64,000 bases of DNA from Leptolyngbyaceae cyanobacterium (GTDB lineage Bacteria > Cyanobacteriota > Cyanobacteriia > Phormidesmidales > Phormidesmidaceae): assembly GCA_965263355.1 (NCBI GenBank), contig CBDHHL010000048.1, positions 230,017 to 294,016 on the forward strand. The letters run 5' to 3'. The position numbers and the translations under genes are program-made. Each line of letters opens with the position of its first letter. The first letter of the stretch is position 1. The notes beneath the pieces are model-generated. The model did no database searches and was not told the DNA's origin. It saw nothing but the letters and a program-made list of their open reading frames with translations. This document shows positions 41,905 to 60,839 of this stretch, one piece after another.

Positions 41905-41906
41905 CA

Positions 41907-42461: not shown

Positions 42462-42492
42462 CCTTTCTGCTCACATTTTTGTTTAGGCGACA

Positions 42493-42909
42493 ATGACAAC
42501 AAAACTTAAACTCCTCAAAACAGTTCCCTTAGATCTGGCCCTACTGCTCAGCCTTACCAGCTGCACCGACGTCATAACCGATGTCATCAATGACATCACC
42601 AACGCGTTTACTAGTGAAGCGATCGCCGTAGGCCAGCAAACCGGCCTAGTCGCCCACGGCCAGGGACCAGGCCCTGACGCCTTCCATATGGTAGGCAGCG
42701 CTGGTCAGCTCAGCACCGCCCAAACCACAACGCTATTGCATCTCAGTTGGCCCCAATCCCATCAGGCCATCGAGAGCGCCCTAGGGTATCCACATACCCG
42801 CGCTACCTACGCGGACTATTACACCCTACCCAACGGCCACACAGCAACGATTTATTACTCCGGTGGAAACGCCACCGGCTATTCATTAGGTGACTCAGGA
42901 GTTGAATAA
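42493..42909 (+). CDS. Putative lipoprotein
   Basis: Basic N-terminus, hydrophobic stretch and lipobox-like LTSC. Confidence 0.6.
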   Translation: MTTKLKLLKTVPLDLALLLSLTSCTDVITDVINDITNAFTSEAIAVGQQTGLVAHGQGPGPDAFHMVGSAGQLSTAQTTTLLHLSWPQSHQAIESALGYPHTRATYADYYTLPNGHTATIYYSGGNATGYSLGDSGVE

Positions 42910-42912
42910 AAC

Positions 42913-43293
42913 ATGGGTTTATTTGATTGGTTTCAGCCTCAAGAGCCAGACACTACCACATTTGAAGTCAGCAACGACGACGGCGATCAGATTGTTTTTA
43001 CCATCCCGACTAAGGGCTCTAATAAAATACGTCAAGCGTTGCGTAATGCTGGGTTAGCTCGCGATAAAGACTATGTCAGTAAAGAATCATTGAAAGATTT
43101 CATCAGGCGTGATCACGGTGACCATCGTTGGTGGGCTCAACGTGATGTTGATGAGCAGGAAGATATAGAATGGCAAGGGGACCAGGAAGGAGGACCGGCA
43201 GACGACGAGGATGATGATACGGAGGGCTGTGATTATGCCGTCGATGATGAAGCGTCAGAGCAAACAGCGCTTAGGTTTTGGCCTAAGTGGTAG
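42913..43293 (+). CDS. Hypothetical acidic protein
   Basis: GGAG RBS; D/E-rich C-terminal half. Confidence 0.65.
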   Translation: MGLFDWFQPQEPDTTTFEVSNDDGDQIVFTIPTKGSNKIRQALRNAGLARDKDYVSKESLKDFIRRDHGDHRWWAQRDVDEQEDIEWQGDQEGGPADDEDDDTEGCDYAVDDEASEQTALRFWPKW

Positions 43294-43308
43294 TTACTAA
43301 ACCTAGCC

Positions 43309-43701
43309 ATGACTGAAATTCAAGTTGAAAATTGTCAGGAAAATTTATCACTTTATCTAGAGCATGATAGTGGTTATACGCCTGAATTTCTGAAAGACCA
43401 TCAAGAGGTTGATGAGGAACTTAGCCGTATTGTTTTGGTTTTCAATGGGGGTGATAATTTTGAGGGGATAGCGGGTGTTGAGGCGTACAGTATATCTGTA
43501 GAGACTGACTATCCTTGGAATTTATCACCGGGGCAACAGAAGGCTTACGAGTTGTTGTTGCCTTTGCAAACTGGCTCTGTTTACGCGCTAACAACTATTG
43601 GTAAACTGGCTGAGGCTATGGATCTAAAGTGTATTAGGGCAGCCTGTAAGCGCTTGGAAAATCTTCAAAGTTTAGGTGTGATTAAAGGTCTTAAGCTTTA
43701 A
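43309..43701 (+). CDS. Hypothetical protein with C-terminal LexA-like winged HTH
   Basis: LSPGQQKAYELL...TIGKLAEAMDLKCIRAACKRLENLQSLGVIK parallels the LexA DNA-binding-domain pattern. Confidence 0.55.
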   Translation: MTEIQVENCQENLSLYLEHDSGYTPEFLKDHQEVDEELSRIVLVFNGGDNFEGIAGVEAYSISVETDYPWNLSPGQQKAYELLLPLQTGSVYALTTIGKLAEAMDLKCIRAACKRLENLQSLGVIKGLKL

Positions 43702-43787: not shown

Positions 43788-43904
43788 AGGTTTGGGCTCA
43801 AAACTGCGAAGACTGTTTTACAGCTACAGGCATGCGCTAACAAATTAAACACTGCAACGTACTCTTCTCTCGAAAAAGGTTAAAAGAGCAAGAAGGGTAA
43901 AGGG

Positions 43905-44727
43905 CTACGGAAGAGAGCCTGGGGGCGCACTCACAACTCGAAAACCGATAATGAGGTAGCGGTCGCCGGGCAGATTGTAGTTGCGACGGGCGGAGCGGCA
44001 ATCCTCTGGATAGTCTGGCCCAGGAGCCGCCGCGCAGGATGCGTCTAGAGTCATTACCATCAGTCATCCAAGCACTGCCATCTGTGGGTGCATTGTTGTA
44101 ATTCTCATGCCAGATATCTTGACACCATTCCAAAACATTTCCATGCATGTCACATAGCCCAAAATCATTGGCAATATCAAAATAATCGACATGGGTGGTT
44201 TCTTTTATATAGTCACCTTCAGGACCATCACCATAGGCAACCGTTCCACGATAATTGGCCACATAAGTCGTCAGGGTTTTGCCAAAATGAAAGGGGGTTG
44301 TTGTTCTAGCTCGACAGGCATATTCCCACTCCGCTTCGCTGGGTAATCGATAGGGACGGCCTGTATGGACTGATAGCCGTTTACAGAACTCCACAGCGTC
44401 ATACCAGGTTACTTGCTCCACAGGTCGATCAGCGCCTTTGTATTCAGAGGGGTCTGTCTCTAACTCGCGATCTACCGCTGGCATCGCCGCCACGGCTCGC
44501 CATTGAGCCTGGGTAACCGGATAGCGTCCCATAAAAAACTGAGGCACCGTCACGTCATGCAGGGGGCCTTCAGACTTCTGTCGTTTCAGCTCATCCTCTG
44601 GGGAGCCCATGGTAAATGTGCCGCCAGGAATTAACAGCATCTGCAGTGGGATGGCATCCCCCAGGGCCTCTAAGGGCTCGGTATAGTACTGAGTCGTAGC
44701 GGTCGTCCGCCGAAGAGTAAACGCCAT
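43905..44727 (-). CDS. DGR target 1: stand-alone FGE-sulfatase/C-type-lectin-fold protein (+1 frameshift inside its VR as sequenced)
   Basis: IPGGTFTMGSP, YPVTQAQW, RLPSEAEWEYACRA, DMHGNV.EWC and RGGSW motifs. Removing one base at ~44016 restores ...[14 protein letters not shown] with the stop at 43905. Confidence 0.9.
43919..44033 (-). repeat. DGR variable repeat VR1
   Basis: 115 nt against the 114-nt TR: 10-11 substitutions at TR adenines (depending on gap placement), two T>C changes and one insertion. Confidence 0.93.
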
Positions 44728-44850
44728 AGAGCAGCAGGTAACTTATTAGCCCCCAGTCTAGCCGCTCCCAGTCCCTAGTTCCCAGTCTCCGGCTGGGAAC
44801 CCCAACCAGGCTCCGCCTGCATCAGTAGGTTAATCTCTCAATTCTAAATA

Positions 44851-45033
44851 GGGCCAGCTAAGTCGTCGGTTTCCCTACCAAAGTAGCTGGCCCAGGGTTA
44901 TTTTTGGATACCTCGACGGGTATCGCCGGAATAGGCTCTGGACTCTTCTGAGGCACACCCGACAGATTCCCATCTGCCAGTTCTGACCAGCCAGGTACCC
45001 AGCCATAGGCAAGGCACCAGCAATAGAAGAGTG
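44851..45033 (-). ncRNA. Structured 3' spacer of the DGR template RNA
   Basis: Directly 3' of TR on the minus strand; stems CAGAT/ATCTG, GATACC/GGTATC and a 10-bp GGGCCAGCTA/TAGCTGGCCC (44851-44860 with 44884-44893). Confidence 0.6.
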
Positions 45034-45147
45034 CTGGGGGCGCACTCACAACTCGAAAACCGATATTGTTGTTGCGGTTGCCGGGCTGATTGTTGTTGCG
45101 ACAGGCGGAGCGGCAATTCTCTGGATTGTTGATCCAGGAGCCGCCGC
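45034..45147 (-). repeat. DGR template repeat (TR)
   Basis: Reads [37 protein letters not shown] with ten AAY codons; not part of a CLec gene; lies next to avd. Confidence 0.96.
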
Positions 45148-45257
45148 TTCGCGGCCTACCCCACATCTAGCATACACAAAACACGAGCCCACCCAACAAG
45201 GCCATCCTGCCGTTAGCTGGGCATTCTGAGCTAACTGGTTACATCTACCCCACATCC

Positions 45258-45647
45258 ATGGCTGTTGAGCTGCCCATCCTGCAAAAAACCTATGACTTAA
45301 TTAAGTGGTACGTCCCTTTACTCAACAAACTACCCCGTGATCAACGGTTTCTATTGGGAAACCGCATCATCACCGGCCTCTACGAACTACTAGAAGGCCT
45401 GATCGTAGCCCGCTATCAGCGCGATAAACTCCCCCAACTACGACAACTCAACAGCAAGCTAGAAATCCTACGCTATCAAACCCGACTGCTGTTAGATTTT
45501 GACCTACTTTCCCACCGCCGCTACCAATACGTCAGCCAACTCATCAATGCCATTGGTACAGACCTTGGTGGCTGGATACGCCAGCAAGAGCAGAAACCAA
45601 AGGTCAGAAATCAGCCCCCAGAAACCACAGCCATTACTAACCGCTGA
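45258..45647 (+). CDS. avd: DGR accessory variability determinant (four-helix bundle)
   Basis: [11 protein letters not shown]...[13 protein letters not shown]...[10 protein letters not shown]; basic 129-aa protein ending 2 nt before the RT. Confidence 0.92.
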
Positions 45648-45649
45648 CT

Positions 45650-46711
45650 ATGCAACGCCATGGGAACCTTTGGCCCCAGGTCATCGACTTTGAGAACCTA
45701 TTGCTGGCCTCACGGCTTGCCCAGAAAGGCAAACGCTTTCGGCCCAATGTCCTCGCCTTTAATGACCGGCTAGGGGCAGAGCTTTTACAGCTCCAGACCG
45801 AACTCACCCACTTTACCTATCGCCCCGGCAACTACCGCACCTTTAGAATCCGCGATCCAAAACCACGCATGATTTCGGCAGCACCCTATCGAGATCGGGT
45901 GGTTCACCATGCCCTATGCAATGTGATCGTGCCATTGCTAGACCGCACGTTAATTAACCACACCTATGCCAATCGTCTGGGCTATGGCACCCATCGGGCA
46001 CTCACCCAGTTTACTGACTGGGCACGGTGTTATCCCTACTGCCTGCAATGCGATATCCAAACCTACTTTCCATCAATCGATCATGAAATCCTCAAGTCCA
46101 TCATCCGGCAACGGCTCAAGTGCCCAGACACCCTATGGCTCATTGACACCATCATCGATGCCAGTAACGACCAGTTCCCCGTTCTCGAATACTTTCCAGG
46201 GGATAACCTGCTCACGCCCGTAGAGCGACGACGAGGGCTGCCCATCGGCAACCTCACCAGCCAGTTCTTTGCCAATTTGTACCTCAGCCCCTTCGACCAC
46301 TTCGTTAAACGCCAGCTCAAGCTCAAACACTACCTGCGCTATGTGGACGACTTTGCCGCCTTCTCAGATGACCAGCAGGAACTGGCCGATGCTCGATTGG
46401 CCATGGAAGATTATCTGGCTACCCTGCGGCTAAAAATGCACCCCATAAAAAGCCAGCTATTTGAACCTCGATATGGGGCCAACTTTGTCGGTTTTCGCAT
46501 TCTGCCTGATCGCATCCGTGTCCGTAATGATAATGTGCGCCGAGCCCGGCGACGGCTCAAGTACTTGCAACGTCGTTATGCCGCTGGAGCAATTGAGCTA
46601 GAGCCGCTGGTCCAGCGCCTGCAGAGCTGGGAAGCCCACCTGAAGCATGGCAATACCTATCGCCTGCGGCAAAAGGTATTTGAACGCCATACGTTTATTA
46701 GACACGAATAA
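45650..46711 (+). CDS. DGR reverse transcriptase
   Basis: [33 protein letters not shown]-type [10 protein letters not shown] and catalytic YVDD; 353 aa with no maturase or endonuclease extension. Confidence 0.96.
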
Positions 46712-46741
46712 GAGGAATGAATTTAGAGGGTAAGAGGGTAA

Positions 46742-46768
46742 TGGTTCCAGGCAGAGCCTGGGAACCAG
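46742..46768. repeat. REP-like hairpin downstream of VR2
   Basis: TGGTTCCAGGCAGAGCCTGGGAACCA; a related hairpin GTTCCCAGTCTCCGGCTGGGAAC lies at 44778-44800. Confidence 0.7.
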
Positions 46769-46781
46769 AAAGGGTAAAGGG

Positions 46782-47633
46782 TTACACAAGAGAGCCTGGG
46801 GGCGCACTCACAACTCGAAAACCGATATAGTTGTCGCGGTGGCCGGGCGGATGGTTGAAGCGACAGGCGGAGCGGCAAAACTCAGGAAAGTTGATCCAGG
46901 AGCCGCCGCGCAGGATGCGGATATTCGTCATTACCGTCAGTCATCCAGGCACTTCCATCTGTAGGCGCATTTCTTATAAGTTGTCATGCGAAATATCCTG
47001 GCACCATTCCCATACATTGCCATGCATGTCGCATAGGCCAAAGGCATTAGCTACATCAAAGTGATCAACTACAGTAGTTTCTTCTCGATATTCGCCTTTG
47101 GGGCCAGAACCATAGGAACCTGACCAGTTGTATTCTTCGCTGTCAGTGCCTCGGTAATTTGCTAAATCCGTCGTAATCGTTTCGCCAAAATGAAAGGGTG
47201 TTTTTGTACCTGCCCGACAAGCATATTCCCACTCGGCTTCGGTAGGGAGCCGGTAAGGACGGCCTGTATGGGCTGAGAGCCTTGCACAGAACTCCACAGC
47301 ATCGTCCCAAGATACCTTCTCCACAGGCCGATTAGCCCCCTTGAAACTGGATGGATCAACATCTAATTCCCGTTCCACCGGGGACATCTCCGCCACAGCT
47401 CGCCACTGGGCCTGAGTCACCAGATACCGCGCCATAAAGAACTGAGACACCCTCACCTCGTGCTGAGGGCCTTCGTTAGACTCACGCTTTAACTCATTCT
47501 CTGGAGACCCCATTAAAAACGTCCCTGCCGGGATACTCATCATCTCCAGGGGGCTCACCCCTGAGGCAATAGACTCTTCGTAATACTGGTTTTGCCCCTG
47601 ACTTTTGTTGATGGTGACAGCTTGAGCCTGCAT
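46782..47633 (-). pseudogene. DGR target 2: stand-alone FGE-sulfatase/CLec protein, interrupted as sequenced by three single-base duplications
   Basis: The ORF stops at WCQDISHDNL*. Removing an extra T, A and C in 46920-46980 restores HDNYKNAPTDGSAWMTDGNDEYRILRGGSW...[14 protein letters not shown]. May be intact in vivo. Confidence 0.8.
46796..46909 (-). repeat. DGR variable repeat VR2
   Basis: 114 nt; 12 substitutions against TR, all at adenines, with no indel. Confidence 0.95.
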
Positions 47634-47669
47634 AGTTGCAAAGGGTAAGAGGGTAAGAAGGGTAAAGGG

Positions 47670-50379
47670 CTACGGAAGAGAGCCTGGGGGCGCACTCACA
47701 ACTCGAAAACCGATATAGTTGAAGCGGTAGCCGGGCCGATCGTAGTATGCGACAGGCGGAGCGGCAAAACTCTGGAAGGCTGATCCAGGAGCCGCCGCGT
47801 AGGACACGTCTAGAGTTATTACCATCAACCATCCAGGCACTGCCATCCGTGGGCGCACCCCTGTAATTGTCATGCCAAATATCCTGACACCATTCCCAAA
47901 CATTGCCATGCATATCTGATAAACCAAAGGCATTGGCAATCTTGAATTCCGTTACTGAAGTCGTTTGCTCGCGATATTTTCCCTTAGGACCATTGCCGTA
48001 GGTATAGCCGCCATTGTAATTAGCAACTTCAGTCGTTAGGGTTTCGCCAACGTGAAACGGCGTTTTTGTCCCTGCCCGACAGGCATATTCCCACTCCGCT
48101 TCGCTGGGCAAACGATACAGACGTCCAGTGTCATTCGATAACCGTTTGCAAAACTCCACAGCATCTTCCCAAGAAACATTCTCCACAGGCCGATCAGCCC
48201 CTTTAAAGCCGGATGGCTCAGCCTTTAGCTCACAGTCCACCTGGGGCATCGCCGCCACCACTCGCCACTGAGCCTGAGTCACCGGATAGCGCCCCATCAA
48301 AAAGCCAGCAACCGTCACTTCATGCTGTGGCCCTTCACTGTCGATTCGGCTAAGCTCATCCTCTGGAGACCCCATCAAAAAGCGACCACTGGGAATCGCC
48401 ACCATCTCCAGCGAGATATCTGCCCCCAACTCTTCCAGAAATCGATAAGCCTGACCACGGGTCTTGGTCACCACCCAGCGCTGCCGCCGTAAAAAGCCTG
48501 TACGTTTACGCTCTAACGTCGCCACCTGACACTCAAACAGCTCCAGACCATCCCCAGGCAAACTCACCGTCGCAATCTCAAAGGTAGCCGTCTTTAACGA
48601 TGGATACTCAACCGTCGGCTCAGCCTCTGAGTCTACAAGCGTCCCTTTGGTAAACTCCAGTACCTCCAACGGTGGATAGTCAACCTTATTATCTGGAGCT
48701 AAAGACTGCACAACGGTTTCCGTCTCCACAGCTGCCACCAACTCTGCATACTGCCCCCCCAACCGCCGCAGGGCCTGCTTCGTCACATTGGCAAATTCCA
48801 AAAACTCACTGCCTGCGGTCTTCAGCTCCTCCTTCAGCCGCAGCAGCGCCATAAAGCTATAGATCGACTTACCCAGCTTGCTGCCAATATAGGCTGACAC
48901 TTCGTTCAGCACCTCCTCTGCCGAGTCTGTCCTGACCGTATCCACCAGCAGTTCCCGCACACCCTCCACAAACCGATAATGCCGTTGCTGATCAAACAAA
49001 CTCCCCTGAGAAACTCCCTTGGATCTATCGACTTCCCCAGCCTCAGGCTTTACCCGCTCAATCAGCCCACTTAAAAACACCTCCGCCACATGCAACGGCG
49101 ACGACTCTGGCAACAGCTTGGCCTGAATGATATACACCAGTGACAGCTCCACCGGCACCAACGCCATTAACGACGCCAACTCTCGGGCCGTTTGCGATGC
49201 CGTTTGACTAAATTGATTTACCAGCTGCTCAGCATAGTCTGGCTCAGTCTGGGTAGCCACGGGGCCAGCAGCCACCAGCTCTGGATCATCTACCTCATCC
49301 TCCAGTTCATCCAACGGATACCAAATGCCCGCCGTTTGGGTATCACCAAACCCAGCCAACACCCTAGCCCACTGAGCCATGGACGACGGTTCTAACGTAA
49401 TGATCGGCAGCTTTAGCCCTGGGCCATACTCCCGATGAAACTCCTGAGGTAGTGGGTCCACTAGCTGGGCATTGGTCCCCCCTGGCCCCCGTGCCGAGAA
49501 TGTGGTTTGTAACCCAGCCTCTAGGGCTGTACGGGACCACATGCGCGACGGCAGCATCTGCAAAATCGCCACGGGGCCATGTTTTGCCCATGGGTCCAGA
49601 TAGTAAGTCTGCAATTTTCCCCGCTGCCATGCGGTCGAAATGCAATCGCTAACCACCACGATCAACCGTCGCCCAGATGCATCGATCAGCCCCTTTGGAT
49701 CGCGGGGGCGAGGCATGGCTTCTGGCATCGGACGCTTAGCATACAGCGCTGTGGCACCACCGGCAGAGGTTTGCAAATACCACACCGTCACGGTACGAAA
49801 CGCTCCCTGCCGTTCTAACACCTGCTGAAAGTCACGAATCGTATCGCGCCACAAAAAGCTAGAGGCAGAATCTTCGACCACCAGGGCCAGTTCTAACCAT
49901 CGTTCTCGGGCAGGCTGCACCATGGTCATACAAAACTGACGCTCAGCCGTCTGTTCCGCCGTCGCCTCTTCATCCAACTCCGTTTGGGTGTAGGAGTCCA
50001 CTCGCCGCATCAAGGGCCGTAGTGAACGCCCCAAGGCCAACGTTCTGCGTAGGGCCGGAGACGTTGGTGTGGCAAACGGGATGCCCTTGTTAGGGGCTTT
50101 AGTTTTCTGAGTCTGAGTCTGTTGGGTTGTTTGACTGTAGAGAGAAAACTCAGCAGCTGAAGGCGGCGGCGCTGGCGGCGTATTATCGATCTCAATTTCG
50201 ACAGTCTCGTCAGGCTCTGACCTTGAGTCTGGTTCCTGCCTTTCCCCTGCTTCCGGAGCGTCAATGTAGCTCGTCAACCACAATAAGTCAGCAATATTCT
50301 CCCCATCCCAATCGATACCCGCATTTTTCACACGGGCAATCACTGTCGCCAAATTAGAAGAGAAATCCTGCTGTACCAA
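47670..50379 (-). CDS. DGR target 3: vWA-like (SAV_2336-type) N-terminal domain plus C-terminal FGE-sulfatase/CLec domain (+1 frameshift in its VR as sequenced)
   Basis: LGRSLRPL, LDEEATAE, LELALVVEDSAS (degenerate MIDAS) and IVVVSDCIS..W; full CLec motifs. Removing one base at ~47748 restores [14 protein letters not shown] at 47670. Confidence 0.9.
47684..47798 (-). repeat. DGR variable repeat VR3
   Basis: 115 nt; 12 substitutions, all at TR adenines, plus one insertion (AAC to ATAC). Confidence 0.95.
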
Positions 50380-50383
50380 TGGC

Positions 50384-51388
50384 CTAAGCCCCCGGCCCTG
50401 ACAATGGCTTCAGAATTTTTTGCAGCAGGTCACTATCAGCGGATAGATCCGGTGTCCCCTCTTGAAGTAATAAATAAATGGCATTGAGCAGTTGATCTGT
50501 CGCCAACGACTCACGATCTCGCTTCTCCACAAAGGCTTTGATCACCGGCTCCGCCTTCGTCAGCACGTCACCGTCTAATTTCGCCAAATGCCGTTGCACA
50601 ATATCCGCCAGTTCAGCCTCTGTCGGCTCACCCATATCCAACCGAATACAGCGCCGCAAAAACGGTGGTGGAAAATCCCGCTCACCATTGCTGGTTAAAA
50701 TCACAAACGGAAACGCATTACACTGCACCTGCCCCTTTTCAATGGTGGCCGTTTCATCCTCTTCAGCATAGGAGGTCCCCACATCCACTGTAGGTAGTAC
50801 TTCCTTAATGCGCTCCAGCTCATCAATCCGAAAGCGCCCTTCCTCAAAGGTATGGAGCAAATCATTGGGCAAATCAATATCGCTCTTGTCAATTTCATCA
50901 ATCAGCAACACCCGAGGTTTTTGGCTCCCTTTAGGCACCGGCAACAGTGCCGTACCCAACGGCCCCAAACGAATATATTTACCAATGGCCTTTAGCGCAT
51001 CGGCCCGATCTTTGGGTAGCTTATTAGTCTGGTCAAACTGAGAGTCTTGCAAGCGACCAATGGCATCGTAACTGTATAGGCCCTGCTTTAGGGTAGTACG
51101 TGTCGTAATTGGCCAGTAAAGCACTTCCCCCAGCTTTAGCTCATGGGCCACCGCATAGGCCAGCGACGTTTTACCCGTCCCCGGCTTCCCCGTAATCAAC
51201 AATGGCCGCCGTAGATAGAGCGCCGCATTAACCAGCTCTATCTGAGCCTCATGGGCCTTAAACGTGGTCCCCTTTTGCTCCTGATACTGATTTACATCCT
51301 GAAACGCTCGCCACCCTGGTGGAGGCGGCAAACGCTCTAGATCATCGTGGGGCTCTCCAGTCCCCTGATAGATTTTCCAAGAAGTCAT
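50384..51388 (-). CDS. MoxR-family AAA+ ATPase
   Basis: LPPPPGWR, AALYLRRPLL, Walker A GKPGTGKT, Walker B LLIDEIDK, TSNGER and FLRRC. Confidence 0.93.
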   Translation of the reverse strand: MTSWKIYQGTGEPHDDLERLPPPPGWRAFQDVNQYQEQKGTTFKAHEAQIELVNAALYLRRPLLITGKPGTGKTSLAYAVAHELKLGEVLYWPITTRTTLKQGLYSYDAIGRLQDSQFDQTNKLPKDRADALKAIGKYIRLGPLGTALLPVPKGSQKPRVLLIDEIDKSDIDLPNDLLHTFEEGRFRIDELERIKEVLPTVDVGTSYAEEDETATIEKGQVQCNAFPFVILTSNGERDFPPPFLRRCIRLDMGEPTEAELADIVQRHLAKLDGDVLTKAEPVIKAFVEKRDRESLATDQLLNAIYLLLQEGTPDLSADSDLLQKILKPLSGPGA

Positions 51389-53205
51389 AGTCTGGCAGCA
51401 GATAACTTAACATTTGGCGGCACTCGATTGGGATCATCCCACAAGATTGCTAAATGATGACCCAACTTTGGCGATTGAGCATATTCTGTCTCGGATTCTA
51501 AAGGAGGTGTATTACGCCGTATTTCTAACACTTTCTCAGGCACATCTTTTAGCGGATGAGAAAGTACCTGATTAAGCAGCTTTGGACTCCAGTCCTCTTC
51601 AGACTGGTTATTCCTCACCCAAACAGCTACAGGAATACCTTGCTTCGCCAGTAGTTGAGGATCGCTCTGGGAATTTAATGAACTTAACTTTTGAAACCCC
51701 ACAATCCCAGCATCTTTAAGGTTATCACTATCGGCAAACACCTTATGGGCGGACACCGTCGCTTTAGCGGACTTTAATTTCCATGTCTTTTTCCATCGAG
51801 CATTGGCCTTGAAACCACCCAGGTTAGAACGCTTTTGCAATGCCAAAATCACCCGCTGACAATCGTCACTGCCAATGCCTAATGGTTCATCTTCTAGCAT
51901 TAATCGCTCCCAAGGTTCATTGAGTAGTGAAGTTGGCAACACAAAGTACACAGTTAATTCACCCGGATCACACTCATCGTCTAACCCTCCACATAGTTGC
52001 ATTAGATAGCTTTCCAGCAAAATCGGTAAGTCACCATAAGCAACCTGATGCTCTGAAAGATGACCATAATTGTCATCTTCCGGAGAAAACAGGAGCCGAC
52101 GACTACCCTGCAAGGTCTGAGTGCTATATTTTTCAGGATCTAAAACAGCCCATGCTTCAACCGATAGGCTTTCTCGACTCGCATCCTCTTGAATATTGAC
52201 CAACAGCATCGGATCACGGGGTTCAACCTGTTGCTCTTGCCGCTTTGCTTTTTGTGCCTGCATCGCCGCTTTGGCAGATTCCAAGTCCTTCGCATATCGA
52301 CTGCCCCATTGATACAACCGCTCTCTTGGCTCTGCTAGTTGCTCTATCTGTTGGGCCTCTAGCTCTAGCACCAGGGCCGCTACAAATTGGACTAACTTAT
52401 CTTCTTCCTGATCAGCACCCGCCGTTGCATTCGCTAGCTCATCGATAATCTTGTGGGTTTCTCGCTGAACCGGAGTCACAGCATTTTGAGACCGACACAG
52501 ACCATAAGCCCGCTGAATAAAATTTAGAATATTTACCTCAGCAGCATCCAAGATATCCGTAAGAGTCTTACGCCGCAAGTAGTTCAGAGGCTCACGGAGT
52601 ACATCCTTAGGCATCATGTAAGCCAAGGTTACAGACTGCTGCTTATCCTTTTCAGCTGCAACTGTCATCCCCACGACAGCATTTAACTGTTCATCCCAGA
52701 TAGGTGAACCACTAAAACCCTGTTCCAGTGAACGATCTTGGCCCATTTTTGCATCTAACTGAACCCATCGTTTCCCAGTTTCACCCCGCAAGGTAGCCGT
52801 TGCCCAAACTCCGTCAGTATGACCTTTAGGAAAACCAAACACTCTTAGGGGATGTCCCCAAGCATCTGACGATGAAACTATTCCAACAGGCTCAGCATTA
52901 GCAGGTGCCGATGCCAATAACTTGAGCACAGCCATATCTTCTGAAAAGGCTGTCTTTGAAACTGGCAACCAGAAAACAACGGATGCCTCTACTTTTTGTC
53001 CTGGTGCTAGCAACGGCAAATCAAGCTGTACCGACTGATCAGGTATGGCCTCTGTATTCTCAGACAACGACAAAGCTGCCGCCACCACATGGGCACAAGT
53101 GAGCACATAACTCTCAGCTACCAAAAAGCCAGCACCGACGACATTGCCATTAGCGTGATACAACCTAACAACGGAAGACTTTAGCGGTTCTAAACGATCG
53201 GACAT
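51385..53205 (-). CDS. Trypsin-like protease fused to a vWA-MoxR-associated (VMAP-type) C-terminal domain
   Basis: Intact triad TCAHV / EDMAVL / GFSGSP; C-terminal FVLPTSLLNEPWE, GIPVAVWVR and LAILWDDPNRVPP; its stop overlaps the MoxR start (ATGA). Confidence 0.85.
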   Translation of the reverse strand: MSDRLEPLKSSVVRLYHANGNVVGAGFLVAESYVLTCAHVVAAALSLSENTEAIPDQSVQLDLPLLAPGQKVEASVVFWLPVSKTAFSEDMAVLKLLASAPANAEPVGIVSSSDAWGHPLRVFGFPKGHTDGVWATATLRGETGKRWVQLDAKMGQDRSLEQGFSGSPIWDEQLNAVVGMTVAAEKDKQQSVTLAYMMPKDVLREPLNYLRRKTLTDILDAAEVNILNFIQRAYGLCRSQNAVTPVQRETHKIIDELANATAGADQEEDKLVQFVAALVLELEAQQIEQLAEPRERLYQWGSRYAKDLESAKAAMQAQKAKRQEQQVEPRDPMLLVNIQEDASRESLSVEAWAVLDPEKYSTQTLQGSRRLLFSPEDDNYGHLSEHQVAYGDLPILLESYLMQLCGGLDDECDPGELTVYFVLPTSLLNEPWERLMLEDEPLGIGSDDCQRVILALQKRSNLGGFKANARWKKTWKLKSAKATVSAHKVFADSDNLKDAGIVGFQKLSSLNSQSDPQLLAKQGIPVAVWVRNNQSEEDWSPKLLNQVLSHPLKDVPEKVLEIRRNTPPLESETEYAQSPKLGHHLAILWDDPNRVPPNVKLSAARL

Positions 53206-53213
53206 CAGTCAGC

Positions 53214-53549
53214 CTACGACTGCCCTCCCCACTTAAGCGTCACCTCAAAAGTGACCTCACTACCCACGGAGCTAAATACTACACCCGCTTCTGCGCTTAA
53301 CTTCAAGCCAAAGGTAACCTCGACTTCATCAGCAGGCGTCGTTAAACCATCCTTCAACTTTGAAACCACCGTTGACGCAACAGGCTTAATCGCATCCAGG
53401 GCCTCATTTAAGTTTTTCTTGGCCTTATAGACCATTTCGGTCGTTTCGGTCAATGCTACGCGCTCAATAGCATTGGAGTTAGGCTCATCAATCTCAACGA
53501 GAAAAGGGGTCCCGTCTTCTAACGTGAACTGAGCTAAAGCTTTATCCAT
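53214..53549 (-). CDS. Trypsin co-occurring (Trypco1 / CU044_2847-like) protein
   Basis: FTLEDGTPFLVE, DEVEVTFGLKLSAEAGVV and FEVTLKW motifs; GAGGAG RBS; directly upstream of the trypsin gene. Confidence 0.82.
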   Translation of the reverse strand: MDKALAQFTLEDGTPFLVEIDEPNSNAIERVALTETTEMVYKAKKNLNEALDAIKPVASTVVSKLKDGLTTPADEVEVTFGLKLSAEAGVVFSSVGSEVTFEVTLKWGGQS

Positions 53550-53864
53550 GGATCTCCTCAGATGTCTACGTAGTCACACTAAAAGTATCAACAAGTATTA
53601 TCCGAAAAATTCCGGAAAAATTGAGCCTTTTATCAGCTAAAACTTTATCACTCTGCCCCAGGAACTGAAATCAGGCGTAAGCATAGCAGCCAGAGAAATT
53701 CCTAGCTGTAAATCGGGTAAAATAACGCTTCACTAATAGATTTCTAATTTCTTAAAAGCCAAAATTATTTTAACAAATCGCCACAAACCTTATCTATGCA
53801 AACAATAGGCAATGTGCAAACTCACAATCGGCTTAACTCTACAGGCAATCCCCACTGACTATTC

Positions 53865-54203
53865 TCACTCACCAAAGTTTTTGTCAATCTCAAATCCTTT
53901 AGATTGAGCCAAAAACACCTGATTAATTCCCCTCACAGTAGCGATGTCTTTTTCTACTGAGTCAAGGCGTCTCTCTAACTCTTTAAGCAGAATATTAGTG
54001 TGGTTACTCAGTGATTTATAATCTCGCTTGAGATGATTAATATCACGCTCTAACCCATAGCTATGACGAACCCTAGCAACAAAGAAGCCAATCACACCGG
54101 CTGCCGTTGAAAAAACTGTTATCGCTAACGGTAGATTCTCTATCAAAAATTTGTTCATGATGACTAAACGTAAAGGGCGATCCAAGATCGCCCTTTTTTC
54201 CAT
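53865..54203 (-). CDS. Single-TM plus coiled-coil protein (holin-like architecture)
   Basis: TM segment LPLAITVFSTAAGVIGFFVA followed by heptad repeats. Confidence 0.6.
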   Translation of the reverse strand: MEKRAILDRPLRLVIMNKFLIENLPLAITVFSTAAGVIGFFVARVRHSYGLERDINHLKRDYKSLSNHTNILLKELERRLDSVEKDIATVRGINQVFLAQSKGFEIDKNFGE

Positions 54204-54222
54204 GGGAGTTTCAAGGAATCAA

Positions 54223-54597
54223 CTATGCCGCGTGTTCTTCAGATTTGCTGGGGTGGACAAACCCGATTGAACAAATGTTGGCAGTCCCCTTGTTGTCTAT
54301 CTCAGACTTACAGGCTGGATAAACAACCGCCATCGGCGGAATACCCGATACATCATCTGTGAGCTTCCATCCTTCATGGGGTTGACAGCTCTCGACTTTG
54401 CAAGCTTCCGAATAAATGACGTTCCCACTGCTAACCTCTAGAATGCCCCATTTTCTATCTCCAACTGGCCTATCTTGCGAATGAATCAAAACATACTGGT
54501 CATAGGGCAGCTTTTCAAGCCACTGGCTAAAGTCAAGCTTTAATAGGTGACCCGGTTTTGGAATCGTGACCACGCCATTAACAATAGGTCTAATCAT
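54223..54597 (-). CDS. Hypothetical protein
   Basis: GGAGG RBS; part of a co-oriented gene string. Confidence 0.7.
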   Translation of the reverse strand: MIRPIVNGVVTIPKPGHLLKLDFSQWLEKLPYDQYVLIHSQDRPVGDRKWGILEVSSGNVIYSEACKVESCQPHEGWKLTDDVSGIPPMAVVYPACKSEIDNKGTANICSIGFVHPSKSEEHAA

Positions 54598-54611
54598 CGG
54601 CTATGGCCTCC

Positions 54612-55319
54612 TTACAGGGTATCAGGTACGTCTTCACCGTCACCACCACTGTCACCGGCTGGAGGTTCTGCAGGAGGCTGATCGCCAGATTCAGCATTAA
54701 CCTGATCTAAGGATGTTGGCAACACACAGTTAATCTGCAACCGTTGCTGAAAGGCCATATAGCCTGCCTGAACCGCATTATAGATATCGGTAACCGCTTC
54801 ACAGCGAATGGCATCCGCATCAAGGCCCAGGGAGTCCAGATCAATAGTCTCAAGCTGACCTTGCAAGGCAGCAATTTGTTGCCCTTGGGTCGCTTGAGTA
54901 GTCTGAATATTAGTCTGGTTAGTCTGCAAATTGGTGATCAGATCACCATGCTGATTAATTTGTTGTTGCTGGCTGTTATAGCTGCTTTCCAGCGCATCAA
55001 GGCGATCTTTAACCTGTTGCAGGTCATTAACGCCGTCGCCATCCTGGTCTTGCAGCGATTCAATCAGTTGTTGTAACTGTTGAACCTGAGCCGTAAACCC
55101 ATCCTGGTTAACCAGCGTATCTAGAACCGTTTGCATCGCTGCAAATTGTTCTAAGACGAATACGCGATCCGCCACCCGACCATCACAGATGGCCGTCTGT
55201 AAGGCTTCACCCATTTGGTCAAAGAATTGAGCAATATATGCCGGGTTCACACAGTCACCGTCTGGTGTGGTGTATCCTGTAAACCCTTGTGTGCCTTCAC
55301 CGTTCTGAACAGTAACCAT
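54612..55319 (-). CDS. Acidic Gln-rich coiled-coil (fibre-like) protein
   Basis: Long heptad region with a DQDGDGVND Ca-binding-like loop. Confidence 0.7.
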   Translation of the reverse strand: MVTVQNGEGTQGFTGYTTPDGDCVNPAYIAQFFDQMGEALQTAICDGRVADRVFVLEQFAAMQTVLDTLVNQDGFTAQVQQLQQLIESLQDQDGDGVNDLQQVKDRLDALESSYNSQQQQINQHGDLITNLQTNQTNIQTTQATQGQQIAALQGQLETIDLDSLGLDADAIRCEAVTDIYNAVQAGYMAFQQRLQINCVLPTSLDQVNAESGDQPPAEPPAGDSGGDGEDVPDTL

Positions 55320-55331
55320 AGGTCAAATTAG

Positions 55332-55925
55332 CTAAGTTTTCTTAAGAAACAAAAGTGAGCCATAGATCTCAGGCTCTACATTGGTGCGATAACCGAAACC
55401 CCACGATTTTGAGCGGTCTCGGTCACACCGCATCTCAGCCACAAACTGAGTCGGCTCAGTAACCGCCAGTAGTCCGCCCATGGGGATGTGCCAGCTGTAA
55501 TGCTCGGAATAAGTGCTGGCCCCATAAATCGGGGTGAGCGAGCCGCCCAGGGGTCTCAGACGGCATCGCATCCCCGAGTTTTCCATTCCCGTTAGCCAGC
55601 CGTTCACGACATAACGGCCCGATGGCAGTTCAATCCGGCCAGCGCTGGGGAATGGCGTAATGGAACCAAATTCATTTAACGGATCGGCATAATTAAACGG
55701 TCGTTCAATCCAGGTATTGGGTGGGTGAAAACTTCCCCCACTCTGGCCAGATGGCCGACGGATTTGAAAACTCGCCCAACTCACCGCCGCTAACGAATTA
55801 GCCCCATTGATGGACTCATGGGGAAACGCTCGATAGGAGGTGCCCCCACGAGCAACAAAGAATTGATCGCTTGCCTGAAACGGCATAGGTAACAACGGCA
55901 AGTCTGAGAAGTCAGTCCCACTCAT
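55332..55925 (-). CDS. Putative receptor-binding/spike protein (beta-sandwich, C1q/TNF-like)
   Basis: N-terminal FSDLP...DQFFVARGGTSYR resembles fibre attachment motifs; SGGSF...W..R..N, IELPSGRY and GFG....EIYGSL resemble phage fibre-tip domains (recognised from memory). Confidence 0.55.
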   Translation of the reverse strand: MSGTDFSDLPLLPMPFQASDQFFVARGGTSYRAFPHESINGANSLAAVSWASFQIRRPSGQSGGSFHPPNTWIERPFNYADPLNEFGSITPFPSAGRIELPSGRYVVNGWLTGMENSGMRCRLRPLGGSLTPIYGASTYSEHYSWHIPMGGLLAVTEPTQFVAEMRCDRDRSKSWGFGYRTNVEPEIYGSLLFLKKT

Positions 55926-56428
55926 GGAAAAACGATCAAGTCTCCGAAAAATGTAAACTCTTCTGTTGGTAAAGAATCCCCAACTCCAAACAAAATCAAC
56001 CCCGTCTCTTGTTCGTTTGCGTCTGAGAACACGTCTGGTAATTGTTTAGCCCATATCTCGATTTGATAATCCGTTAGCCAGGTATGGGGCCAAAACTCAA
56101 AGTAGTAGCTAAACCCATCACCCGTAAACGAAAAATACTGATTATCTAGATAGACCCGTTCTACTTGCTTGCGTGGTGATGCAATCGGCGTACCACGCAA
56201 GCTTTGAACAAAATATCCCGCCCGCTTCCAGCCACGGTCAGCCCCTATGCGTGAACTAATTTTCACCAGCACACTGGCTGATAAAGACAGCTCAAACGTG
56301 AACAACTTCCCCCTAGCTGCATTGGTGTAGTAAGTCGTTAATCGCTCAAACGTATCTGATAACAACGTTGAGGTAAATACACCGAAGTAAGACGATGGAT
56401 ACAAGACCGGACCATAACGGCCAGACAT
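55922..56428 (-). CDS. Hypothetical beta-rich protein
   Basis: Coupled to both neighbours (ATGA and TAATG overlaps); WKRAGY...YYFEFWPHTW...IEIW. Confidence 0.7.
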   Translation of the reverse strand: MSGRYGPVLYPSSYFGVFTSTLLSDTFERLTTYYTNAARGKLFTFELSLSASVLVKISSRIGADRGWKRAGYFVQSLRGTPIASPRKQVERVYLDNQYFSFTGDGFSYYFEFWPHTWLTDYQIEIWAKQLPDVFSDANEQETGLILFGVGDSLPTEEFTFFGDLIVFP

Positions 56429-56763
56429 TAGTTATAGGAACGATTGAGAACACGGTACACGTATTCCACTTTGCCGAGTCCCGTAACATTTTTACCGACA
56501 ATAGACTTTAAAGCATTATCCACTTTGCCAGCAGCACAATAAACATAGCCTCTAGCCTTGCGCCTCTTGGTATCCCGCTTAGACCCCCGTAGCCCTAGCT
56601 TGATAACCGCTCGTTTTGCAGCTTCCCCAGTCAGAATATTATTTTTACTGGTTGTTGTTTTTGCACCAACAATAGACCCTAGGGTCTTGTAAATATCTGG
56701 CTTAAGTGACAATGCAGCTGCCGAATTGTTGAAATCGAAATAATACGTTTTAAGTTCTGCCAT
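56428..56763 (-). CDS. Small basic protein
   Basis: K/R-rich (RGSKRDTKRRKAR), 111 aa. Confidence 0.7.
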   Translation of the reverse strand: MAELKTYYFDFNNSAAALSLKPDIYKTLGSIVGAKTTTSKNNILTGEAAKRAVIKLGLRGSKRDTKRRKARGYVYCAAGKVDNALKSIVGKNVTGLGKVEYVYRVLNRSYN

Positions 56764-56797
56764 CGTTCATCATCTCAATAAAATTGTTCAAACTGAC

Positions 56798-57031
56798 TTA
56801 AGACAGATACTCATCAGCTGTATACGTGATAGCCCCTGCTGCTCCCGATAGTGTGGTGGGCAGCGTCAGGGCAACGGCCACCGTACTCGCTTCGGTGTCT
56901 GGAGTAATCGTGATGTTATTCAACGGAATTTCATCAGTCGATTGAGTCGCCTCAGCTGCCTGAATCGCTAAGGCAATTTCTAGGGCCTGACCTTCTAGGG
57001 TCGTTGCTGTGGTTGTAATTGCAGCCGCCAT
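56798..57031 (-). CDS. Small Ala/Thr-rich protein (candidate virion subunit)
   Basis: Strong AAGGAG RBS; helix (TLEGQALEIALAIQAAE) followed by beta-strands. Confidence 0.7.
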   Translation of the reverse strand: MAAAITTTATTLEGQALEIALAIQAAEATQSTDEIPLNNITITPDTEASTVAVALTLPTTLSGAAGAITYTADEYLS

Positions 57032-57162
57032 AAGTCTCCTTGATAAGTAATCGTTGATTCAAAAAAATTGGCTGCTTTATCAATGCCCCAAATGGTTATC
57101 AGACTGGGCATTCTGGCAATACGTTTGTCCCTTCCACCCTAGGGTAGAAGGGTATATGAAAC

Positions 57163-57378
57163 ATGTCCAAAAAAATTGCTCGATTGTGGATAGATGAGCA
57201 TCATTCAATCCGTAGCTTGAATGATGCCAGAAAGGCCGGATTAATGTTTATCAACACAAAAGAATATGCTAGACGTGAGCATATTCACGTACGCACGGCA
57301 CGCCATAGAGCTAAGCAAGGCAAGGTCAGAGCCGAGAAATTTAAGGGTGAATGGTTTTTTTTAGTTAAAGGCGTTTGA
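57163..57378 (+). CDS. Excisionase-like HTH DNA-binding protein
   Basis: INTKEYARREHIHVRTARHRAKQGKVRAEK..GEWF pattern. Confidence 0.7.
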   Translation: MSKKIARLWIDEHHSIRSLNDARKAGLMFINTKEYARREHIHVRTARHRAKQGKVRAEKFKGEWFFLVKGV

Positions 57379-58029
57379 TCCACTTGGGAATAGTATCTAG
57401 ATCTTCGTCAAATTTTTTCACCAACTTAGCTTCAACCCTAATCACTTTAAGGTTTCTATTACTGTTCTCTGTATAAACTGGCTGACTACCCGGAATAAGG
57501 TAGCGACTATCAATGAGAGTCTCACAGTAGTTTAAAACCTTGCGCCCCTCAGCTTTGCTGTTAGCATTGAGCACTACGCTAGATCCATCTCGTAGCGTTA
57601 GCGTACAAGTCACATTTCCCTTAGTGAATTGAGGAAAGCGAAAATTATAATTATCTCTAATTCCATCTTTTGGATGAGGAATATACATCTTCCATCGAGA
57701 ATATCGCTTGGTGCCCGATACAGGCCCCCACTGAACAAGTAATTGACTTTGATCCCGTAGCTTGTAAGTCCCCTTTTTAACTCCCATATCATGGGGATTG
57801 ATGGCTCTTCTAGCCCACGACCACGGACCAAAAAATATAAAAACATACGGCATAGCGCCATCGGTGCCGTGTCGTTGTCTTTGATCAAGCAGGCATACCG
57901 TAAAGCACTTTCAGGGGTGCTAATGGTATCGTCTGGGATGCCATCTCTAAAATCGTCACGAACAACCCGGTTATACAGTCGCATTAACACCGACTGCAAA
58001 AATTCCCATTCATTCCCCGGTGCTGGCAT
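57365..58029 (-). CDS. Hypothetical protein split by a single frameshift
   Basis: ORFs 57610-58029 and 57365-57853 join into one ~221-aa protein if one base is added near 57785 (...IPMIWGVKKGTYKLR...). Confidence 0.6.
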
Positions 58030-60839
58030 TTACGCGCCCCCCACAGATGGATCATCTAGGTTGTGGGGAGCTTGAGACGCTGCCTTACTAACCGCCTCTG
58101 CCTCCGTCAACGGCTCAGACCATGGATCATCGACTAATTCACCTTCGGTCTTGATAGCGGCCCTCAGCTCGGCTCTCTGCTCCTGTAGCTCATTTGAAAC
58201 CTCTTGGATGCTGACTAGCTCATCAGCGACCAGGCCAACGGCGCTAACCGCCTCGTCCGCTCGGTCAATGCGATTACTGAGTGCTTCCCAGCGCTTGCCC
58301 GTTTGATACACCCGATCAAACCGCTCAGACATCGCCCCATAGGCATTTTCTAACACCGTGCCAGACCGCCGCAAAGCATTACCGATCCTAGCCACATTCT
58401 GGCCGATGGTTTCTACAATCATTTGACCACTATCAAAAATTGACCACATCGACCAGTAGAGGTTGCTAGCCGCCTGGTAGATTCGATTTGCCCGTGTCAA
58501 CGTTGCCGCTATCTCTTCCCGTTTGGCTTCCCCAATTGCCCGATCAATCGCCGATGTAATTAACTCAGAGATTTTCTCACTAACTCCAATTGGGTTTCCT
58601 TCAGAGTCTTCTAAGTGTAGCCCAAACAATCTCATAACAGAATCAATCGCCCATCCTGCCGTTTCTGCCAGCTCTCGGCTCAGAAAATACGCATTGTGCA
58701 AATTCATCGCAAAGTTTGCCACCGCTAACAGTCGATCAATCTGCAAAAAGTCCCAGGTCTTTTTAGTCAGCGTTTGGATCGTGTTTACAACAGTCGCTGT
58801 AGTTGTCACAATGCCTGCTGTTGCCGTCGTCGTCGTATCAATTTTAGCAAGCAAGCTTAGATCAGGAATATCATTAAGCTTGTCTGATAGCCGTTTTTCT
58901 AATCCACTAAGCGCATTATCAGTATGGGCATTTATTCCCCCATTGCAACCACAACCAGATCCTTTAGTTGTTACTGGGGGATTCGTTTTAACACCTTGTT
59001 TTGGTGGATTTAATGCATTGGTACGATTTGGCAAAGCTGGCATAGCTAATGCCGGTATAAAATTAGAAAAACTTACAGAATCTGTACCTGAGTTCTGTAA
59101 ACGTTGCAGTAATTTGTCATGAATAGAATCGCCTGAATCAGAAGCATTCCCTAATTTTCTTTCGCTTTGTTTACTAGGGTTAGTAGGATCAGGAGTATCA
59201 AAAAAGTCAGGATTAATTCTATTATCTTGAGCTGTGTTATTACTTGGAGGGGGTGATGTTTTGTTGTTATTTAATCCATGCTTATTCGGGCTATTAGAAT
59301 TTTGATTATCCCCACTAGAATTTCCCCCAGATTGTAAACCAGCTTTTCTTGCATTATTTCTATCTTGATTATTTATATTATCTGCTTGGTCTTGAGTTGG
59401 TAAATTGTTGGGTGCATCATTTGGAGATTTATCTAAATCTTTTGCAGGATCATAACCGGTAGGTTCGTCTTTACCATCACCATCTTTATCTGGATTTGGT
59501 GATAAATCTGGCAAATCGCTAGGTGGTGGAAACCTTGCAGGATTACCGTCTTTTTCATTTGGATCTACACTACCGTTGTTATCACCTTCGTTATCTAACT
59601 CAATTACGTCTTCAATCTCTAAACGCATATCAATACGTTCACTGTTACTTGTTCCTGTTCCCGCAATAATATTTCTAATCGCAAAAGGCTCAAAGTGATT
59701 ACTAGCTCCATCGGGGGATGTAACGCCTATATATTTATGATTACCACCACTTGAATATGTAACAGTACCAATAGGGCCTCTTGCAACAATACTATCTGTT
59801 CCTAAATCAATCCAACCTTCATCTGCCCTTGAATGGGGCTCCATATATCTTCTATGTGTACGATATAGAACATAATAATGTTTGCTATCGTCACCGTAAG
59901 TATCATCACCAACAATATCTCCCGGTTGTTTTTTAGCAGAAGATTTAGGAGCAACTGCTTTAGTATCGTTTCCTGGATTTCTACCTAATAAACTATTTAA
60001 GTGGTCCCCAACACTAGGGCCAAAAGGTTTACCAATAGCCCCATAGATTTTATCTCCTAAAAATAAACCACCACCTAATGCAGCTGTACCTAAAGCAGCA
60101 ACTACACCAGCTGGATTTGCTGCAACAGGAGCAAACAAACCACCCCCAGCACCGGCAGCACCAGCACCGGCAGCACCGGCAGCACCTGCTCCTTTAGTTT
60201 TTGCCAATATAACTGTACCCGTAGCTTGAGTTATAGCTTGAGCACCTTGCTGTTTTGCAAATTGACCAGGACTTGTTGTTGTTCTAGGTGCTGATGTTGT
60301 TTTATTGGCTGCAGCATTCCACCGTTGAATTGCTGAACTTCTTTGTCCTGGTGTATAAGCATTATTTACTGTTGCCGTTCCTGAGTTACTAGCTACATTT
60401 CCTCTTGTACTACCAAAATTATTTATATTCTTAGCAGCTTGTGTTGTTCCTCTTGGGCCAGAGGTTGACGTTCTATTTCCAGAGGAAGCCTGTTGTTGTC
60501 GGTGAAAATTAAGACTTCTATTTAATGCATTAGATATCCCACCTTGTTGTGTTTGTGCTGGGGAAGGCGGTTTTAAGTTTAAAGGTTTCCTTATATTTAG
60601 TTGTTGTGGATTCCTAGTTCTTAAAGTTAAGGAACCTGATTCTTTATAAGGTAAAGGATTACTTGTATTTGTGCTAGGAGATCTTTGTAACTGGAACCCC
60701 CTCCTCCTCTAGATTGCACACCATAATTAGGACTGCTTAAATCCCCTGAAGTAATTCCAGAATTACTATTTTTATAGTACTTAGCTGCGTATTCATTCAA
60801 AAGAGTAGTTGCATTACCGGGGGAATAAAGAGTAGGCAT
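58030..60839 (-). CDS. Large (~936 aa) low-complexity/helical protein, candidate adsorption or DNA-pilot protein; one frameshift near 60700
   Basis: The frame of ORF 58030-60207 is open back to 60708, and one extra base in the C5 run 60697-60701 joins it to ATG 60839. Contains a Gly/Ala hydrophobic segment, a Pro/Asp/Asn spacer, GCGC and a helical C-terminus. Confidence 0.7.

Follow-up and report, generated by a model that had tools for sequence, protein, structure and literature searches.

Does the immune-type gene cluster found in a 64,000-nt stretch of a Leptolyngbyaceae cyanobacterium genome (hereafter the window) travel as cargo of the integrated element around it, or does it merely lie beside that element? 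An earlier note, made from the sequence alone, had suggested that a four-gene operon at 47670..53549, wired to a diversity-generating retroelement (DGR), is mobile cargo of a prophage-like element. We compared the window with sister loci (labelled L), database proteins (P), genomes (G) and sequencing runs (X). On balance we lean towards a joint reading in which a complete DGR-linked VMAP cassette stands between the gene blocks of a phage-like element inserted at tRNA-Pro, is likely to be its cargo, and works by a mechanism in which a lectin-fold (CLec) domain is the sensor. From left to right, the window holds tRNA-Pro, an integrase, an excisionase-like (xis) gene, a primase-polymerase (primpol) gene, two repressor-like genes, an early block, the DGR with the operon, a late block and an NB-ARC gene, within which the window ends (Table 1).

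The operon and its predicted mechanism

The four minus-strand genes are as tightly coupled as the earlier note had claimed, with intergenic distances of 8 nt, -4 nt (an overlap) and 4 nt. Hidden Markov model searches matched VMAP-C, Trypco1 and SAV_2336_N, and all of the family-defining domains of the operon exceeded curated cutoffs. The vWA gene scored 415 bits against a cutoff of 200 for NF041121 (SAV_2336_NTERM) and also carries an FGE-sulfatase/CLec domain. The VMAP protein is tripartite, with Trypsin_2 (residues 24-180), VMAP-M1 (229-338) and VMAP-C (385-592) all above cutoff. The protease triad and the Walker motifs had both been called intact, and both are: H39/D90/S165 is unchanged in 13 of 13 aligned relatives, and MoxR has Walker A at residue 67, Walker B at 161 and an Arg finger near 243, along with the N-terminal family motifs defined by Kaur et al. 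(WxhapG at residue 4 and PsWRxa at residue 24). The VMAP-MoxR-vWA order matches that of the VMAP ternary system, and Trypco1 adjoins the trypsin-type VMAP, as VMAP ternary systems have it. PADLOC, which holds no model for this type of system, returned generic protease and ATPase matches only. Every domain test thus agrees with the conflict-system identity first proposed and, judged by domains and gene order, the operon is a genuine and complete member of the known, predicted VMAP ternary type in its cyanobacterial DGR-linked form.

The vWA assignment was also examined with an AlphaFold model of residues 96-375 (16 sequences, pLDDT 65). When this model was compared with 48,161 chains, the top six matches were vWA domains (Z 8.1-8.7; the best 8.7, with an rmsd of 3.2 over 135 aligned residues), with TIR-like and other Rossmann folds scoring within 1 Z of them at this model confidence. 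Aspartates stand at the strand ends (D245 invariant in 16/16, D170 in 5/5), and in the N-terminal extension E27 and D31 match the acidic residues of the motif [D/E]xxx[D/E]xxxa, but the aromatic residue, W34, sits one place too early for it. A PDB sequence search with the vWA alignment gave no match below E 0.27. The operon proteins likely form a cytoplasmic complex, because their strongest 19-residue hydrophobic windows (0.9-1.8) score below that of the holin-like gene product (2.0). A promoter scan gave results at or below chance (5 against 8.4 expected).

The reverse transcriptase (RT) of the DGR is 75-91% identical to other cyanobacterial DGR RTs. The claim that the vWA protein ends in a DGR-diversified lectin fold stands as regards diversification, since the first variable repeat (VR1) differs from the template repeat (TR) at 12 adenine positions and at no others; the gene is, however, frameshifted as assembled, a point taken up below. 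The DGR-linked system is, from its sequence, probably active.

The model that we favour, with CLec as the sensor, MoxR and vWA as the relay and trypsin as the effector, is that of Doré et al. 2024 and hence not new. The DGR would give each cell or filament a different CLec pocket. Once CLec binds an invader ligand, a MoxR hexamer would take hold of the vWA domain, and its remodelling of the complex between vWA and VMAP would activate the trypsin domain of VMAP; Trypco1 would be a likely adaptor or brake. The resulting proteolysis would arrest the infected cell or cause its death, so that the filament is spared. The benefit to the element would be the exclusion of competing phages, and the benefit to the host a receptor repertoire. 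Counting against this picture, we found no anti-phage test of any VMAP system in the literature searched, where the ternary complex is likewise predicted, and so DGR-linked VMAP systems appear to be predicted only.

The opposite direction of signalling is proposed in the available part of Kaur et al. (PMC7159879). There, VMAP would sense through its variable VMAP-M region, MoxR would remodel, and trypsin would cleave the vWA protein to free CLec as a decoy or binder; the location of the cassette would be read in the same way. VMAP is indeed the most diverged core gene among the close copies (66% identity, against 92% for MoxR and 87% for vWA), and two stand-alone CLec genes exist without a vWA domain. 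We nevertheless prefer the CLec-sensor order, because the vWA protein here has no fused enzymatic or toxic domain, which leaves the intact trypsin as the only recognizable effector, and because the N-terminal VMAP domain swaps between trypsin, TIR and EAD1 in element-linked copies whilst CLec stays constant. Hypermutation limited to the ligand pocket also fits a receptor, and we regard the opposite direction as rather unlikely.

The cassette at the junction of an integrative element

An integrase beside a tRNA gene, an excisionase-like gene and a replication gene are hallmarks of integrative elements, and all are present here. No capsid, portal or terminase PHROG match was obtained with 22 window and 50 sister proteins, and the late-module genes scanned gave no Pfam or NCBIfam family above cutoff, so that the word 'structural-like', earlier applied to the late genes, did not find a matching family. 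Homologues of the long late gene match tape-measure families weakly, some sisters carry M15 peptidase genes, and the ESM Atlas neighbours (0.92-0.93) belong mostly to viral clusters that have no family (for the gene at 56428-56763, the ESM Atlas gave no usable match). The element is unproven as a prophage.

Alignment of the primpol identified 155 loci in GTDB representatives, and 80 of them were retained. The closest relatives, from Leptothoe, Adonisia and Leptolyngbya, are 80-82% identical, which points to a marine filamentous cyanobacterium of this group as the likely host. In Leptolyngbya sp. PCC 7375 (L006), homologues of the integrase, two early genes, the primpol, xis and three late genes lie between 45-bp tRNA-Pro repeats 14.7 kb apart. 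A second att-bounded member (L013) has tRNA-Cys repeats 12.6 kb apart. Because early and late blocks occur together inside both of these bounded elements, they belong to one integrative-element family.

The cassette sits where the two blocks converge, the early genes ending at 43701 and the last late gene at 53865, 10.1 kb apart, as the earlier note had placed it. Homology of the late block to L113 starts at 53837, and the homology blocks nearly abut, with gaps of 87 bp (53750/53837) and approximately 170 bp (43701/43875). The slot is empty in two sisters: in L005, 168 bp separate the homologues of the last late gene (s53865) and the last early gene (e43309), and in L029 the two blocks are adjacent. 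In other sisters defence genes stand beside the junction. The three closest (L002-L004), inserted at the same tRNA-Pro, have CRISPR-related genes after the last early gene, namely CRISPR-associated TPR genes and an array (L002), Cas10/Cmr3-6 (L003), and WYL, Csx3-AAA and HD genes with arrays (L004). On the late side, the last gene is followed by an unrelated TIR-VMAP-MoxR-vWA-CLec system in L094 and by a Trypco1-trypsin-STAND/NB-ARC system in L113. The late block of L112/L113 (Adonisia turfae) is 91-93% identical to that of the window in three genes. Among 18 further late-gene ends, several are followed by an integrase or lead straight into host genes.

The cassette also recurs in other flanks, and mobility between different flanks is thereby shown at the sequence level. 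Of the 120 genomes of the family, 49 contain a VMAP-type MoxR, the three closest copies standing at 92-93%. One of these (G010:C173) lies between two 147-bp tRNA-Cys-derived direct repeats (L101 10106-10251 and L102 557-703; 88% identical, ending in the tRNA-Cys 3' end), beside a related element with a VapE-type primase, which suggests that the cassette can be an att-bounded unit by itself. A 75% identical copy lies between xis and the integrase of the tRNA-Cys element in L029. Among the four close copies compared, TR, the accessory gene avd and RT are kept with the operon only in the window: G001 has lost all three at the locus and gave no DGR RT match genome-wide, and the G086 and G010 cassettes are without the TR-Avd stretch.

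A late-block marker was found at 37 places in 27 of the 120 genomes, six of them within 25 kb of a VMAP-type MoxR. With the four loci used to train the marker removed, 4 of 33 were near such a MoxR, against 0.26 expected. Because two of these four co-locations are near-identical, we count three independent cases (P ~0.003) under a null of uniform placement, and shared use of island hotspots is compatible with the excess. A 13-row tree places the element-linked MoxRs in at least four lineages; because of its long branches (L094, L095, L112) it served for lineage counts alone and not for the direction of transfer.

The mobile-cargo reading gains comparative support because the junction is empty in L005 and L029, the ends of the junction in other sisters hold defence genes, and the cassette recurs in other flanks. 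Our comparisons make it probable that the cassette is the defence cargo of the element. This is not proven, because no attR was found in the window, an excised form was not seen and phage nature was not shown.

Several results weigh against cargo. No second copy of the tRNA-Pro core was found at 37.3-64.0 kb, in a search with exact 11-mers of tRNA-Pro and with stretches of at least 17 nt with at most two mismatches, which also covered tRNA-Lys and tRNA-Cys sequence; it should be noted that this equally yields no attR before 43.8 kb, which would have placed the operon outside the element. No excision joint was seen among the listed contigs, which also do not bridge the left junction. Six of seven scans of IMG/VR were empty, among them those for MoxR, vWA and three late genes, and the other gave a single relative of the primpol (31%); this may just mean that elements of this kind escape being classed as viral. 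The ends of the cassette show no target-site duplication, the best repeats being 8-10 nt. In L002-L004 no late-block homologue follows the early block in the DNA examined, the contigs stopping about 6 kb on in two of the loci and L003/L084 continuing with 24 kb of CRISPR and insertion sequence (IS) DNA. The stretches examined from G008 and G002 hold the late block without the early block, which shows that the blocks can occur apart. Of the three closest cassettes, two (L082/L083 and L099, in G001 and G086) adjoin tRNA-Cys, with no integrase in the stretches examined.

The lack of an attR in the window, the early blocks of L002-L004 and the closest cassettes at tRNA-Cys suit an alternative in which a defective tRNA-Pro element with the early block only, the cassette, a foreign late-block remnant and the NB-ARC pair piled up at a hotspot as a defence island, with no travel in common. 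L087, L113 and L119, with a late block and no early block, agree with it, and tRNA hotspots used by both kinds of DNA would yield co-location with islands anyway. A chance pile-up does not readily account for blocks that face each other in the window just as they do around the empty junctions of L005 and L029, for the near-abutting homology blocks, or for the presence of both blocks inside the att-bounded L006 and L013. We consider this alternative unlikely.

Diversified targets and their reading frames

All three CLec targets of the DGR are out of frame in the assembly. In target 1, a surplus base in VR1 (~47748) extends the open reading frame (ORF) to 47494, giving 961 aa; four orthologous vWA-CLec proteins (901-969 aa) terminate at the position equivalent to the stop at 47670, and the gene end first given, 47670, is thus the stop in the frame of the orthologues. 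Target 2 has extra bases at 46919, 46975 and 46978 (assembled ORF 46974-47633), and target 3 an extra base in VR3 (assembled ORF 43837-44727). The ends of the 961-, 219- and 296-aa CLec ORFs were rejected as natural ends.

Another sample of the same study (X2) contributed one 413-nt contig (depth 12.5) from which precisely the three surplus bases of target 2 are missing, so that this gene is in frame. In its VR2 allele all 15 substitutions fall on TR adenines, which make up 27 of 112 positions (P ~1e-11). Run X3, in which the share was small, was left aside, contig depth did not serve as a gauge of cell share, and no RNA run was listed as containing this DNA. This allele represents diversification between samples or strains, not within a single clone. 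The CLec frameshifts are probably assembly errors, because X2 holds target 2 in frame with adenine-only substitutions. The insertions in VR1 and VR3 each hit a variable AAC codon, as a consensus of mixed alleles would produce. Neither VR1 (47760-47839) nor VR3 had a covering contig among the sequencing-run contigs listed, so that for VR1 error is a likely reading of the frameshift, not a demonstrated one. Taken together, assembly error over mixed alleles is considerably more likely than real decay.

If the three frameshifts were real, the sensor genes would be pseudogenes in a decaying element. Comparable indels of one base affect the 57 kb gene (57365-58029) and the NB-ARC gene as well as in VR1, VR3 and target 2, with none in the host genes compared at 29.6-37.0 kb, and a 99% identical database protein (P0001) shares the frame break in 57610-58029. 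Close relatives of both genes are in frame, however, the 57 kb gene being so in P0003; RT, Avd, TR, MoxR, VMAP and Trypco1 are all intact; and the missing bases in X2 and the insertions at variable codons fit error over mixed alleles. Decay of the system is therefore improbable.

A regulatory or self-recognition role, in signal transduction or filament kin recognition instead of defence, appears very improbable: the available part of Vallota-Eastman 2020 (PMC7517822) does read cyanobacterial DGR targets as signalling proteins, and PADLOC yields its generic matches only, but the same position hosts type III CRISPR and STAND genes in sister elements, and the distribution is patchy (the 49 of 120 genomes above), with DGR parts frequently lost.

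Table 1. Features of the window, in order of position within each part
Feature	Position	Strand	Basis or remark
tRNA-Pro	37179-37254		
tRNA-Pro(GGG) 3' part, inferred attL core	37210..37254	+	Copy at each end of sister L006
Tyrosine integrase	37258..38493	+	PF00589; phrog_1 E 1e-52
Excisionase-like helix-turn-helix (HTH) gene	38508..38852	-	phrog_66 E 3e-4
Primase-polymerase-like replication protein	39084..40475	-	PF09250 E 5e-4 (below cutoff); 405 relatives
Two small repressor-like genes	40746..41238	+	Second is HTH_3
Early block, small genes without known function	41470..43701	+	Last gene ends 43701
Terminator-like hairpin, 11 bp	43756-43782		After early block
Whole DGR and VMAP cassette, 9.9 kb	43875..53750		Bounds set by DNA identity (~80%) with differently flanked copies
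Stand-alone CLec, DGR target 3	43905..44727	-	
VR3	43921-44033	-	10 adenine-position and 2 other changes; 1 inserted base
TR	45036..45147	-	27 adenines; 10 AAY codons; ~6e14 amino-acid variants
Avd accessory protein	45258..45647	+	NF033474, 135 bits against cutoff 80
DGR RT, intact, 353 aa	45650..46711	+	Domain search, motif (YVDD at 231)
Stand-alone CLec, DGR target 2	46782..47633	-	3 extra bases as assembled
VR2	46798..46909	-	12 adenine-position changes, 0 others
vWA (SAV_2336_N) with C-terminal FGE/CLec, DGR target 1	47670..50379	-	~902 aa in orthologue frame
VR1	47685..47797	-	12 adenine-position changes, 0 others; 1 inserted base
MoxR AAA+ ATPase, 334 aa	50384..51388	-	Domain search; N-terminal motifs, Walker A/B, Arg finger
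VMAP, trypsin-like protease with VMAP-M1 and VMAP-C, 606 aa	51385..53205	-	Domain searches, alignment, motifs
Trypco1 (trypsin co-occurring domain 1), 111 aa	53214..53549	-	PF19493 E 1.2e-24; NF041216
Late block, genes without known function, holin-like membrane protein, long Gly/Ala-rich protein	53865..61337	-	
Host part, direct repeat pair	9494-9871		138 nt, 91% identical
Host part, tandem repeat	3011-3088		Three 26-nt copies
Host part, dispersed palindromic repeat	5531-5562; 32009-32040		

The element family and its relation to described systems

Members of the element family vary in several respects. The integrase/att module takes different places in the same circular gene order, lying at the early/late junction in some members and beside xis in others (L006, L008, L010 and L121 were compared with the window and L002-L004). 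At least two largely non-homologous late modules exist (L005, L008, L010 and L029 against the window, L006, L087 and L113), and the primpol is replaced in some members by VapE-type or primase-helicase genes. Next to the late block of L112/L113 lies, at one end, an EAD1-VMAP-DGR locus whose RT is split and, at the other, Trypco1-trypsin-STAND. In L074 an iSTAND ternary system adjoins a member of this element family, the primpol being followed by TIR-EAD9, iSTAND, MoxR and vWA-CLec genes.

Within the window, an inverted repeat at 40641-40695 (27-bp arms, 1-nt spacer) between the primpol and repressor genes is a candidate operator or origin. The overlapping ORFs at 57365-58029 (-) are one gene interrupted at an A-run; 57365-57853 and 57610-58029 were rejected as two genes, since P0003 joins them. 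Three database proteins show three frames at this site, which fits repeated assembly error or natural slippage. The domain at 57368-57775 (-) has 142 cluster representatives, is usually C-terminal in proteins of 500-870 aa, and was modelled by AlphaFold at pLDDT 93. It shows weak full-length likeness to 2H phosphoesterases (Z 3.3-3.9, ~101-110 aligned) and E 0.07-0.9 to BFVD Acb1/HXTX models, the fold search returning no capsid fold and all Z values staying below 5; from the model, it could be a counter-defence nuclease fold. In the long late gene at 58030-60705 (-), the called TTG is preceded by ~500 nt of open frame that contains no in-frame ATG, possibly through another indel or an unusual start.

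At the right end (61447-64000, +) lie a small gene and an NB-ARC STAND gene, the latter with a surplus base near 62348. In L132 a copy that is 91% identical and in frame directly follows the late gene of another element, and the pair may therefore be a second cargo of the element. A metagenome scan with the NB-ARC gene gave two short contigs and no extension.

Swappable defence systems at a fixed position between core gene blocks are known from P2/P4-like prophages and satellites. The slot principle is shared here; the element family is unrelated and uncharacterized, with no recognized capsid or terminase, and its cargo, unlike that of the P2/P4 hotspots, is ~10 kb long and self-diversifying.

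The operon itself has close counterparts. Kaur, Burroughs, Iyer & Aravind 2020 (PMC7159879) defines, in the part available, the VMAP ternary system including Trypco1 and the DGR link, with TR/RT linkage in ~80% of cyanobacterial VMAP systems. The window operon shares with the vWA-MoxR subsystem 1 (FGS/DGR subtype) the VMAP-MoxR-vWA order, the tripartite VMAP and the MoxR N-terminal motifs, and it also has Trypco1 beside trypsin, the FGS-vWA fusion and a linked TR/RT. The composition is identical, and the word 'prophage' occurs 0 times in the main text of that paper. Doré et al. 2024 (PMC10907252) describes, in the sections available, clade-5 DGR conflict systems (Thiohalocapsa DGR 4, 5 and 7, and cyanobacterial clade 5E), which share the architecture, the sensor-to-effector model and adenine-specific diversification in natural samples; we liken them by architecture, not by RT clade. 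Mobility is ascribed there to IS elements and miniature inverted-repeat transposable elements, whereas the window cassette lies in an integrase element. The corresponding preprint, in the part available, places in prophages only those unicellular clade 5C DGRs that lack CLec targets. For Nostoc, the accessible part of PMC12691664 reports co-expression as well as mutation at adenines. Cyanobacterial DGRs in Vallota-Eastman 2020 (PMC7517822) are, as here, multi-target with CLec/FGE variable domains; none was assignable to a prophage in the part available, unlike the window DGR, which lies within an integrase-primpol element.

What is moderately new is therefore the position within, and the repeated association with, an uncharacterized family of integrative elements. 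We found no description in the literature searched of VMAP/DGR systems as cargo of such elements, or of the element family, though supplements may list cases. A broader proposal, which we put forward tentatively, is that an undescribed family of small proviruses of filamentous cyanobacteria, with a primpol/integrase core of about 13-15 kb and no recognizable capsid genes, recurrently carries DGR-VMAP cassettes in swappable slots and leaves them at tRNA genes. As part of this proposal, and with the same reserve, type III CRISPR and STAND systems would use these slots too.

The window copy is a good candidate for a functional test, as TR, Avd and RT are retained with the operon and a target is diversified between natural samples. 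If the provirus is the vehicle, the window would show an active DGR immune receptor within a prophage of a cyanobacterium, the placement for which the 2020 survey had no example, and an element that can be induced would supply both a transferable system and candidate invader ligands. The variable slots of this widespread element family, with its 155 primpol loci, could be mined for more cyanobacterial defence systems. Location in such an element is a possible route for the patchy spread of VMAP systems and, judging from the loci compared, integrated phage-like elements are likely to spread such immune clusters.

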